Shown: in pieces, positions 9,398 through 11,676 of the stretch
Numbering within the stretch: position 1 is the first letter of the stretch
Layout of the letters: the number at the start of each line of letters is the position of its first letter
Virus record (IMG/VR): IMGVR_UViG_3300031601_000047
DNA length: 21,239 nt
Direction: 5' to 3' (one strand)
Origin: a virus
Notes under the pieces: generated by a model
The model's database searches: none
The model's input: the letters and a program-made list of their open reading frames with translations, nothing else
Told to the model about the DNA's origin: nothing
Program-made: the position numbers and the translations under genes

Positions 9398-10021
9398 TTA
9401 TTTGAGTATTAAATAACCATCATCATCACGATCACAATTTTCAATCCATTTTATAAGTAAATTTAAATTACTTTTATTATCTATACCATAATCAGAATTA
9501 ATTACTTGTTGTAAAAATTTACATCTTTCCATTTTATATGTATCATAATCAACAAATTGATATTCTTTAAATATCTTTCTTTCATCTTCAAAAATTTCGA
9601 TGAATGTACCATTTGTCAGATACCACATATCCAAACCACAAAACATATCTGTCAATTTGTCACCTGTCTTATTATGAGATTTTGTTGCAAGAATAATATC
9701 ACAAACTTTTTGAATTTCTGGTGTCATTTTTGTAAACATTTTACTTTTTAGAAAATTTACAGATTGTAATTCGTTATCTGTTTTTTGAGGATTATAAATA
9801 ATATCATGAAAAAGTGCAGTGAGAATAAGTATATCTCTTTCTTCTTTGATAATTAATCCTTTTCCAAAAAATTCATTTATTTTTTTTATTAGAAACTCAA
9901 TATGTGTAAATGTGTGATAATATCTGTGAGGTTCGCTATATTTTTCTTTAATTTCAGCATATGTAATATTTAATGCAAATTCAGTTAATACTCCTAGGGA
10001 GTTCATTATTTGTTGTGTCAT
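9398..10021 (-). CDS. HD-superfamily phosphohydrolase (COG4339-like)
   Basis: PHRYYHTFTHIE…(about 28 aa)…LFHDIIYNP. Confidence 0.55.
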   Translation of the reverse strand: MTQQIMNSLGVLTEFALNITYAEIKEKYSEPHRYYHTFTHIEFLIKKINEFFGKGLIIKEERDILILTALFHDIIYNPQKTDNELQSVNFLKSKMFTKMTPEIQKVCDIILATKSHNKTGDKLTDMFCGLDMWYLTNGTFIEIFEDERKIFKEYQFVDYDTYKMERCKFLQQVINSDYGIDNKSNLNLLIKWIENCDRDDDGYLILK

Positions 10022-10404
10022 TTTAGTAGTCCTTTTATTTTTCTTTTATTAACATTATAATATATATTATAATCAATATTACCACCATAAATATTTTTCG
10101 CCATAATTATATGAAAAGTTGTAGTATCTGTGATAAAATCAAAATCAATTTTTTTATTAAAAATATATTTATTGTCTAACGAATCTTTAATAATAATTTC
10201 ATTTTTAGTTTTTTCATAAATATTTTTAGTTTCATATTCAGTTCCATGAAAATTTAAACCTATACCTACAAATCCCCAACCAATCACAATTATCATTATT
10301 AACATTATACTCCCTGTAGTTATCACATTAGTTTTATCTTTGATAATTCCAAAATTCAATATATAAATTGAAATAACTGTTATGATTATTAAAAATATTA
10401 ACAT
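10018..10404 (-). CDS. two-TM membrane protein, paralog 4 of a tandem family (…KKIDFDFITDTTTFH…)
   Basis: Hydrophobic N-terminus and a conserved C-terminal motif. Confidence 0.5.
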   Translation of the reverse strand: MLIFLIIITVISIYILNFGIIKDKTNVITTGSIMLIMIIVIGWGFVGIGLNFHGTEYETKNIYEKTKNEIIIKDSLDNKYIFNKKIDFDFITDTTTFHIIMAKNIYGGNIDYNIYYNVNKRKIKGLLK

Positions 10405-10847
10405 TATAATTTTTTTCCTAAATTTTTAGTTTTATTATTTTTTATTCCAATGGTGTCCATTTTCTGCATTATATCTTGATATGTATAATAAAATATTTCT
10501 TCACATCCTGAAGCATTTCCACCATACATATTAACACCTTCAAGATAATAAAATGTTGTCGTATCTGAAATATTATCAAAATCTTTTTTAATATTAAATT
10601 TAAAAGAATTATCATCACATATAACTAATATAAAATATTCTGTTTTGACTATTTCAGCATTTTCTATCTTAGATATTTTAGAATTGACATCATTGGTAAA
10701 TCCAATTAAAATCCAGCCAAATATAAATATGCAAATTGCAGTAACTATAGAGGCTCCAAAACTATCATAATTTCCACGATATGCAAAAACTGACCATATT
10801 ACTATACCTATTGATAACCCAACTAATATTACCCAACTCCAAATCAT
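10404..10847 (-). CDS. two-TM membrane protein, paralog 3 (…KKDFDNISDTTTFYY…NMYGG)
   Basis: As above, with a 1-nt overlap to the neighbouring paralog. Confidence 0.5.
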   Translation of the reverse strand: MIWSWVILVGLSIGIVIWSVFAYRGNYDSFGASIVTAICIFIFGWILIGFTNDVNSKISKIENAEIVKTEYFILVICDDNSFKFNIKKDFDNISDTTTFYYLEGVNMYGGNASGCEEIFYYTYQDIMQKMDTIGIKNNKTKNLGKKL

Positions 10848-11251
10848 CGTATTTCTCCTTCACATATATTATTATTAAAATCAATATAATAAATAAATAT
10901 AAAATCTGTTTCAATATTATACATATTATAACCTTGTATGATAAAGAATGTTGTAGTGTCTGAAATATTATCAAAATCATATTTTTTATCAAAAACATAC
11001 ATGTTACCTGAATTTCCATAATCTTCAAGTATAACAGATTTGTTACTTTTTGATATTTCAACATCAACTACAGTGATATTTGTTTCTAATGTTACTAAAC
11101 CACCAATGGCAAAAAATCCAATCAACCCAATAACAATGAGTGAGATTATGCTTCCCATAACCCAATTTTCATCACCTTTAATAATTCCATGAATTAATGA
11201 AAATACGCCTACAACGACAAGCAACAAATTTAATGCTAATAACCAATTCAT
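10844..11251 (-). CDS. two-TM membrane protein, paralog 2 (…FDKKYDFDNISDTTTFFI…NMY)
   Basis: The track ORF starts at 11281, but the internal Met (MNWLLAL…, 11251) gives an ATGA overlap with the upstream paralog, like the others. Confidence 0.45.
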   Translation of the reverse strand: MNWLLALNLLLVVVGVFSLIHGIIKGDENWVMGSIISLIVIGLIGFFAIGGLVTLETNITVVDVEISKSNKSVILEDYGNSGNMYVFDKKYDFDNISDTTTFFIIQGYNMYNIETDFIFIYYIDFNNNICEGEIR

Positions 11252-11676
11252 AATTTTTTTGTTTTTAAAATTTTTCCCCAATATTTAATATTATCAATTT
11301 CATAAAATGTGTTAATGCCAGATTCGTTATTATACATATTAAAATTTTGTTTTAAGTATATTGTTGTAGTATCTGAAATATTATCAAAATCGATTTTTTT
11401 ATCAAAATAATATACAAAATTTCTTTGATAATCATCTACTGTAATAGATTTTCTACTTATAGATATTTCACCATCCACTTTTAATGTTTTTGTGTAAATA
11501 GTTCTACCTAATCCTACAACAAGCCACCCAATTATTATTATTAAAAATAACCCAACACCACTAATCCATTGTAATATCTCTTGTAATGTGGCATACTTAT
11601 AACCTAGAAAAAAACTGATAATTAACATTGCTGATAATGCAATTGTAGCAAGTATTAAAATTGTTAGTTGTGTCAT
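11248..11676 (-). CDS. two-TM membrane protein, paralog 1 (…FDKKIDFDNISDTTTIY…NMY)
   Basis: As above. Confidence 0.5.
   Translation of the reverse strand: MTQLTILILATIALSAMLIISFFLGYKYATLQEILQWISGVGLFLIIIIGWLVVGLGRTIYTKTLKVDGEISISRKSITVDDYQRNFVYYFDKKIDFDNISDTTTIYLKQNFNMYNNESGINTFYEIDNIKYWGKILKTKKL

Follow-up and report, generated by a model that had tools for sequence, protein, structure and literature searches.

Four Translationally Coupled Paralogs of an Undescribed Two-Transmembrane-Helix Protein Family in a Low-GC Phage Genome

Organization of the Four-Gene Array

The window analyzed here is a 21,239-nucleotide stretch of DNA from the IMG/VR virus record IMGVR_UViG_3300031601_000047. It comes from the 33.6-kb ENA contig k141_910919 and has a GC content of ~22-25%, with densely packed small open reading frames (ORFs). 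Four consecutive ORFs called on the minus strand, designated p1 to p4 in 5’ to 3’ order, encode the small membrane proteins that are the subject of this report. The positions of all features are listed in Table 1. Related loci are labeled with the letter L and a number (example, L013).

A preliminary description of this DNA presented p1 to p4 as tandem, translationally coupled paralogs with two transmembrane (TM) helices and a conserved C-terminal domain (C-domain) in a phage genome. This arrangement is real. As described, stop-start overlaps join all four genes and can be read directly from the sequence: ATGA at p1/p2 and at p2/p3, and TAATG, with a 1-nucleotide overlap, at p3/p4. The lengths first given were 142, 145, 147, and 128 amino acids, of which the first, third, and fourth stand. 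The second is revised to 135 amino acids because the ATGA coupling needs the ATG at position 11251. The 145-residue version of p2 uses an upstream TTG at position 11281 and would overlap p1 by 34 nucleotides. All p2 orthologs start with MNWLL and are 134-139 amino acids in length.

The four-way alignment of p1 to p4 contains 17 invariant positions and the previously reported core, K-x-DFD-x-I-x-DTTT ... N-x-Y. The p1 and p3 proteins, which are among the most divergent pairs, align with a BLASTP E value of 2e-10, so the paralogy is significant. The N-terminal halves are the more diverged, with an identity between orthologs of 48-62% in the TM part versus 61-71% in the C-domain. The conserved segment is neither low-complexity sequence nor part of a housekeeping family, the two outcomes named beforehand as counting against the description.

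Protein Architecture and Topology

Two TM helices per protein are seen both by hydropathy, which places two strongly hydrophobic segments within the first ~57 residues of each protein, and in the AlphaFold model of p1. The model has helices at residues 3-22 and 26-57, with a pLDDT of 90.6 for the full-length protein and 94.1 for the C-domain. Each protein is predicted to be a helical TM hairpin with a compact, all-beta domain of ~80 amino acids at the membrane surface. The C-domain is confidently predicted by the model and is without counterpart among solved structures. A profile search of PDB sequences returned TM noise only, and a library of viral structures gave a single real match, to an unnamed protein from an “uncultured marine phage”. 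This architecture, and the family that it defines, is considered very likely to be correct.

The conserved core of the p1 model is composed of a short helix (residues 94-99) and a loop leading to a strand (residues 106-113). Conservation in the C-domain was scored over 150 diverse family members and is highest for N113 (97%), Y115 (95%), I100 (88%), F106 (84%), T104 (81%), and D102 (80%). The second TM helix (TM2) contains a G-W-x-x-x-G motif whose residues are conserved at 89% (G), 70% (W), and 81% (G) in the same members. The signature of the family, as read from these sequences, is I-x-D-[ST]-T-x-F-Y ... Y-N-x-Y-G.

The DxD within the core had been proposed to bind a metal or a sugar. These two aspartates are poorly kept, with D96 present in 56% and D98 in 38% of the 150 members, and are often replaced by S/T/E and N. 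A catalytic or metal-binding DxD is therefore unsupported. The signature would instead be a fold-defining, helix-turn-strand element, and it may also be a binding surface. The conserved face is most likely a fold-defining, partner-binding surface rather than a catalytic DxD site.

Topology was assessed on ortholog groups with the positive-inside rule, in which the K+R count of the N-terminal tail and the post-TM2 segment is compared to that of the loop between the helices. The count is 17 versus 5 for the p2 types, whose loops are strongly acidic (examples, EDEDD and DDDD), and 20 versus 4 for the p3 types. A second line of evidence comes from locus L024, where p3 and p4 are a single ORF of 262 amino acids. 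The junction reads ...FYINNNTEKKRRRT followed directly by MIEFF... (TEKKRRRT/MIEFF), and a second record shares this junction. Since each unit of the fusion has two TM helices, both beta domains must lie on one side of the membrane. The KKRRR sequence next to the TM helix argues for the cytoplasmic side.

The K+R bias and the fusion make it likely that all of the C-domains are cytoplasmic and that only the 3-10-residue loop is periplasmic. The K-x-K loop of p4 raises an opposite (dual) topology of p4 relative to p2 and p3, which is excluded by the p3-p4 fusion. Surface modules and receptor masking had also been suggested for the array. Both are unlikely for the conserved domain, since the K+R bias and the KKRRR linker of the fusion predict it to be in the cytoplasm.

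Distribution of the Family

A profile of p1 to p4 retrieved 35 homologs from 5.8 billion clustered proteins, with E values of 1e-48 to 1e-3. All 35 are metagenomic, are 86-150 amino acids in length, and lack a Pfam domain. An exhaustive HMM search of 1.84 billion representatives returned 402 clusters at E ≤ 1e-3, nearly all 115-150 amino acids in length and with the same layout.

None of the 150 diverse members reaches any family in Pfam or PHROGs, and the array family has no match in NCBIfam. The defense models of PADLOC do not match p1 to p4 or four distant members. No relative was found by pattern and tblastn in GTDB, searched with one genome per species over 185,579 prokaryotic species, and no match was found among 50,697 deposited phage genomes by tblastn with p1 and two distant members. 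IMG/VR holds one locus with a family member, on a 270-kb contig. On the basis of these searches, the family is phage-specific, environmental, and undescribed.

The sole signal from a sequence family is that of Pfam DUF6452, where residues 64-135 of p1 match profile positions 12-84. The match has a score of 16.7 bits versus a gathering score of 27.1 (E ~0.008) and occurs in 1 of the 150 family members. It is probably noise or, at best, a very remote relation.

A further ORF of the window, near its right end, is also weakly matched by the family HMM (Table 1). The signature motif of the C-domain is not in its sequence, and the match is probably one of TM-hairpin similarity only.

Evolution of the Array

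Arrays of four genes are present at loci L006-L008, L013, L014-L016, and L023. Arrays of three genes, of the p2, p3, and p4 types, are present at L001/L002 and L003-L005. Locus L024 carries p1, p2, and the fused p3-p4. The gene order is the same across these loci. Orthologs of p1 occur in L006, L013, L023, and L024, and p1 is a lineage-specific fourth copy. More distant members of the family are single-copy and lie in varied accessory contexts, on large phage contigs of up to 136-270 kb.

Positional orthologs of the window and L006 are 56-67% identical, compared to 25-37% for paralogs within a genome. In a neighbor-joining tree (no bootstrap), members of a given type from different genomes group in a clade of their own, with p1 and p2 as sister types. 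The ratio of nonsynonymous to synonymous substitution (omega) between the window and L006 is 0.21-0.48 for each paralog and domain, with pooled values of 0.38 for the TM part and 0.31 for the C-domain, at a synonymous divergence (dS) of ~0.8 that is partly saturated. Purifying selection acts on each of the four paralogs and on both of their domains.

The array had been taken as possibly diversifying. The old paralog clades, the conserved order, the omega values of 0.2-0.5, and the fusion of two of the genes in one lineage do not fit that view. Because of the separate clades, the order, the purifying selection, and the fusion, the paralogs are considered old and non-redundant, which points to subunits rather than interchangeable variants. 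The p3-p4 fusion can also be read as gene-fusion (Rosetta-stone) evidence that p3 and p4 act jointly.

Strain-Level Variation

Locus L013 comes from a sister sample. Over 6.4 kb, it differs from the contig of the window by only 50 mismatches. The stretch includes 1.9 kb of a major vault protein (MVP) gene, two ORFs, and the whole 864-nucleotide intergenic region that lies 5’ of p1, as well as the genes p3 and p4 and the HD-type phosphohydrolase gene that follows p4. The TM hairpins of p1 and p2 contain 37 of the 50 mismatches, in one patch each (Table 1). The p1 C-domain, which lies between the two patches, is identical in L013 and the window. Within the patches, omega is ~1 and dS is 0.05-0.17.

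The patches were compared to two known modes of variation. Hypermutation by a diversity-generating retroelement is rejected: 14 of the 37 variable sites are A, which equals the base composition, the sites are spread 12/12/13 over the codon positions, and no repeat of a patch exists within 20 kb. No reverse-transcriptase family is among the Pfam matches on record for the 20-kb source locus. Gene conversion between paralogs is also rejected, as there is no paralog donor. Either the patches were imported as two short segments from a diverged relative, or they result from local diversifying selection on the part exposed to the membrane and periplasm. The hotspot is real and is so far a single case.

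A second variable spot lies just 3’ of the HD gene (window 9162-9397; L011:11855-12396 compared to L013). It is non-coding and contains 13 mismatches and 26 gap columns. A third strain pair, L006 and L007, shows no differences within the array. These two loci are otherwise near-identical, and 15 of their 19 differences are in a NUMOD3-type, homing-endonuclease-like gene (L006:4857-5765). The other 4 are in the region of the structured RNA described below.

Structured RNA Upstream of the Array

The 864-nucleotide intergenic stretch 5’ of p1 is conserved in all genome types that bear the array. It contains a structured RNA that ends in an intrinsic terminator. The terminator hairpin is retained in L001 through compensatory changes, and it marks the 5’ boundary of the array unit. 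RNAalifold predicts 100 base pairs from four sequences, 27 of which have compensatory double changes. With the diverged copy of the 735-kb megaphage record LR756501 added (five sequences), 78 pairs are predicted, 28 of them compensatory. The LR756501 copy contains an extra hairpin and has no gene of the two-TM (2TM) family within 6 kb.

The RNA reaches no family in Rfam. Membership in the manA RNA family (RF01745) is rejected: compared to a gathering threshold of 55.2 bits, the window scores 24.6 and L003 scores 22.5, L001 and L006 have no match at E ≤ 0.5, and the megaphage copy has no match at E ≤ 1. Apparent copies in five other viral contigs are chance 17-mer matches in unrelated, high-GC coding DNA. 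The LR756501 copy has no 2TM gene nearby, the RNA is missing from single-copy 2TM loci, and an intervening ORF lies between the RNA and p1 in L024. These observations argue that the RNA would be an independent RNA gene rather than a dedicated leader of the array, and it is a candidate for a new class of phage RNA.

A second, small hairpin is located at ~12161-12220 on the minus strand (GAATAC-TTACAGCAAC...-GTATTC). It has a conserved loop and is present in all four genome types. Its only Rfam match is at chance level (Dicty class I RNA, 26.6 bits versus 41.5).

Neighboring Genes

The HD gene is ATGA-coupled to the p4 stop, and its match to Pfam HD is marginal and below the curated cut-off. The terminator-like hairpin 3’ of this gene is the probable 3’ end of a p1-p4-HD transcription unit. 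Four terminator-like sites were found in the scan versus 0.4 expected. A scan for sigma-70 promoters is uninformative in DNA of 22% GC (39 sites versus 33 expected).

The HD gene is not a conserved partner. Loci L001 and L014 carry an NMNAT-like CTP_transf_like gene at that position, and the family member of L017 is coupled to a nicotinate-phosphoribosyltransferase-like (PncB-like) gene. An RNA ligase gene is also among the genes that, depending on the lineage, are coupled directly to a family member. The recognizable neighbors in the window are accessory genes, namely two HD proteins, GGACT, NADAR, an RNA ligase, and a match to phrog_24943 (annotated as DNA polymerase). Neither the window nor the related loci contain an endolysin, spanin, or holin family.

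A homolog of MVP is encoded 1.7 kb upstream of the array and is syntenic in L001, L007, L011, and L013. In L003 and near single-copy family members, no such homolog lies within 10 kb. The protein shares 52% identity with genes of three megaphage records of 462-735 kb (LR756500, LR756501, and LR756503). These genomes are described in PMC7162821 and are cited as megaphages in PMC9723777. The window is therefore taken to come from a relative of those megaphages. The first description of viral MVPs dates from 2023, and reports to date are limited to two gut phages (bioRxiv 10.1101/2023.11.10.566534). In a 2026 preprint, the shoulder of the eukaryotic vault is reported to have ADP-ribose bound (10.64898/2026.05.01.722283). 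Genes related to NAD or ADP-ribose are located near MVP, namely NADAR in the window and the NMNAT-like and PncB-like genes in relatives.

A tail motif, (L/M)RKxKLxx(I/L), is common to unrelated small proteins and lies no more than 12 residues from the C-terminus. The ORFs of the window (6,070 amino acids) contain six C-terminal matches and no internal match. The motif is also present in L006 (six ORFs), L003 (two), L009 (one), and a 119-amino-acid ORF of L024, whereas L001, L017, L031, and L032 lack it. A targeting or cargo-type tag could explain the motif, as could a conserved DNA element at the 3’ end.

Table 1. Positions of the array genes and other features in the window and at related loci.
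Feature	Position	Strand	Description
p1	11248..11676	-	142 aa; TM hairpin at ~residues 4-24 and 38-57, beta C-domain 58-142
p2	10844..11251	-	135 aa; ATG at 11251; acidic TM1-TM2 loop
p3	10404..10847	-	147 aa; ~25-aa C-terminal extension specific to the p3 type
p4	10018..10404	-	128 aa; K-x-K loop between TM helices
p1 conserved core	11359..11397	-	K94-I106 (K-I-D-F-D-N-I-S-D-T-T-T-I); from alignment and model
p2 equivalent core	10946-10984	-	From alignment; p3 and p4 carry equivalents too
p1 variable patch	11519..11598	-	TM1-TM2 loop and TM2; 11 substitutions versus L013, 8 amino-acid changes
p2 variable patch	11084..11232	-	TM1, loop, TM2, and first post-TM2 residues; 26 substitutions versus L013, 15 amino-acid changes
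Intrinsic terminator	11753..11788	-	AAACCCTGA...TCAGGGTTTTTTT; ends the structured RNA, ~75 nt before the p1 ATG
Structured RNA	~11792-12088	-	~300 nt; covariation; better conserved by far than the flanking genes
Structured RNA homolog	L001:~8740-9090		
Structured RNA homolog	L003:~9530-9890		
Structured RNA homolog	L006:~1690-2040		
Structured RNA homolog	L033 (LR756501):~5915-6230		
HD-type phosphohydrolase	9398..10021	-	207 aa; ATGA-coupled to p4 stop; phrog_19425 at 1.4e-19
Terminator-like hairpin and T-run	9140..9161	-	3’ of HD gene; from terminator scan of the sequence
MVP homolog	13385-15799	-	804 aa; Pfam MVP_shoulder 3e-27, Vault_3 2.5e-8
ORF with two N-terminal TM helices	20646-21197	-	183 aa; family HMM E = 1.6e-4
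Tail-motif ORF	2008-2334	-	
Tail-motif ORF	2575-3072	+	
Tail-motif ORF	3056-3379	+	
Tail-motif ORF	6393-6737	-	
Tail-motif ORF	12541-13035	-	
Tail-motif ORF	19059-19322	-	

Interpretation of the Array

The array belongs to a real, undescribed, phage-only family with a confidently modeled domain, which in this clade has expanded to an old, ordered, and coupled set of three or four genes. It is of a familiar general kind, that of the small accessory membrane proteins found in large phages. The explanation preferred here is that p1 to p4 are subunits of one phage inner-membrane complex, with a protective role weakly favored. Taken as a whole, it is given just short of an even chance.

The anatomy, the family, the fold model, the orthology, the coupling, the fusion, and the selection regime are shown by the data, and the cytoplasmic orientation, the hetero-oligomer, and the biological role are inferred from them. 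The two parts of this explanation differ in strength. That p1 to p4 would form a heteromeric complex is somewhat more probable than its opposite. Such a hetero-oligomer, derived from a homo-oligomer, is proposed because the paralogs are old and non-redundant, the genes are coupled stop to start, and p3 and p4 are fused in one lineage. A protective or exclusion role at the inner membrane is tentative and rather doubtful; it is suggested by analogy, from the format of the proteins, the neighborhood, and the hotspot. This role is favored because the genes around the unit are accessory and auxiliary ones rather than lysis genes.

In most relatives the gene is single-copy, and its product presumably forms a homo-oligomer. 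In the clade of low-GC aquatic megaphage relatives, the gene would have been duplicated to give the p2, p3, and p4 types, followed by p1 from the p2 side. Stop-start coupling would allow the subunits to be made in fixed proportion, as for a hetero-oligomer. The TM hairpins would anchor the complex and pack through the Gly/Trp motif of TM2, and the cytoplasmic beta domains would bind a conserved partner. The hairpin and loop would form the outward-facing, strain-variable part. The complex may block the entry of competing phages, or it may neutralize a membrane-acting host defense, in a manner like that of T4 Imm.

Several observations weigh against this explanation. The conserved tandem order could also mean four separate specificities. 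The hotspot is seen in one strain pair only and may be a single recombination patch; a second pair, L006 and L023 (98.4% identical), shows a mild excess, with 1.8% difference in the TM part compared to 1.0% in the C-domain. The orientation of the C-domain is drawn from the positive-inside rule only, and the K+R bias is ambiguous for the p1 types (10 versus 9) and for the p4 types (28 versus 21, with the K-x-K loop). The neighbors differ by lineage (HD, NMNAT-like, PncB-like, RNA ligase, and TerC/vWA), so the genomic context gives no functional anchor.

The closest competitor to the single complex is a set of four independent superinfection-exclusion or immunity proteins, each directed against a different competitor or receptor, with the array serving to broaden specificity. 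Exclusion of the T4 Imm type classically relies on small phage proteins with two TM helices that are encoded in accessory regions. T4 Imm (Pfam Imm_superinfect) and other small phage superinfection exclusion (Sie) proteins have the same two-TM, inner-membrane format in accessory regions, and the variable, membrane-embedded part of the array is compatible with an arms-race interface, as in Sie proteins. The L013 and window strains differ almost only in the TM hairpins and loops of p1 and p2, at an omega of ~1. Independent proteins are, however, a poor match to old paralog types that are kept in order, are under purifying selection, and include a p3-p4 fusion. Conservation is highest in a folded domain that is predicted to face the cytoplasm, and not in an exposed surface. 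Unlike T4 Imm, the array proteins add a beta domain of ~80 amino acids and form an old, coupled set of three or four paralogs. Similarity to the Imm family or to any defense-related model is absent: Imm_superinfect has no Pfam match for p1 to p4 at E ≤ 0.1, nor among the 150 members at E ≤ 0.01. Four independent exclusion proteins are thus considered unlikely.

A multi-component holin/antiholin set that times lysis is quite improbable. Holin and antiholin are often adjacent, related genes, and class II holin-like two-TM proteins have cytoplasmic regulatory domains. The array proteins share with class II holins (S21 pinholin) the two TM helices and may share the N-in/C-in topology, as predicted from the K+R bias and the fusion linker. 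The small-xxx-small type motif of TM2 would be suitable for the packing of helices into a pore. Holins have a shorter chain with a short charged tail and are encoded next to an endolysin, whereas the array proteins end in a folded beta domain of 80 amino acids. The array lies among accessory genes for nucleotide, NAD, and RNA-repair functions, with no lysis gene in the window or at the related loci.

A third alternative, which is very improbable, is that the array encodes an NfeD-like membrane partner of the MVP homolog that docks or organizes an MVP cage. NfeD proteins partner with SPFH cages, and the MVP shoulder is SPFH/stomatin-like. The parallel extends to the layout, since NfeD proteins (E. 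coli YbbJ/YqiJ and B. subtilis YuaF) also combine TM helices with a small beta domain at the C-terminus, and the SPFH-like gene (MVP shoulder) is nearby in most array genomes. NfeD (PF01957) homology is rejected, with no Pfam match and an hhalign probability of 0.6% for the family versus a YbbJ alignment, and the C-domain did not test as an OB-type beta-barrel of the NfeD kind.

A related and highly improbable variant is a heteromeric membrane platform, of new fold, that tethers or organizes a phage vault-like MVP shell at the inner membrane. It would act with the ~300-nucleotide RNA and the tail-motif proteins, as possible cargo, in a vault-like ribonucleoprotein compartment. SPFH-NfeD-like logic would in that case have been reached through an unrelated fold. 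Least probable of all is a subunit of an oligomeric channel or transporter (example, for ions or NAD precursors): the coupling of family members to NMNAT-like (L001, L014) and PncB-like (L017) genes and the NADAR gene in the window would suit it, but it is the soluble domain that is best conserved, the TM helices, save for one Gly/Trp motif, are conserved the least, and the neighbors are inconsistent across the family.

The bPH proteins (YdbS/YdbT, Pfam bPH_2) also have two N-terminal TM helices and a small, beta-rich cytoplasmic domain. They are rejected as relatives because there is no Pfam match and the only helix of the modeled domain is mid-domain (residues 94-99), whereas the PH fold is closed by a C-terminal helix. 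The array family belongs to none of Imm, NfeD, bPH, or the class II holins, and it differs from each in a sequence or a fold test.

Large phages carry hundreds of unnamed genes, and the array family, with at least 400 clusters, is one that is confined to phages. It has an unusually clear evolutionary signature of one gene giving rise to three or four subunits that cooperate as a fixed set, a natural fusion included. The family is a tractable target for structural and interaction studies of the ways in which megaphage-type viruses remodel or protect the inner membrane of the host. Should the protective role prove true, a new class of protein would be added to superinfection exclusion or anti-defense. 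If the link to MVP is true, the array would bear on the long-standing question of the function of vault-like particles. The structured RNA, the MVP homolog, and the C-terminal tail motif may turn out to be of no less interest than the array itself.

Other Observations

The RNA ligase of the window is split into two ORFs on the minus strand. The first (15924-16304) and the second (16416-16787) comprise a PHA02142 OB-domain fragment and the C-terminal part of an RNA_ligase domain. In L001, the RNA ligase is one intact gene of 340 amino acids. The split could be due to a pseudogene, an intervening element, or a sequencing frameshift.

Genes of the TnpB/IS605 OrfB type, with a Cas12f-like TNB domain, are present in L001 (16135-17247) and L003 (2862-4022 and 6704-7918), and none is present in the window. 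The two L003 copies are ~84% identical at the DNA level.

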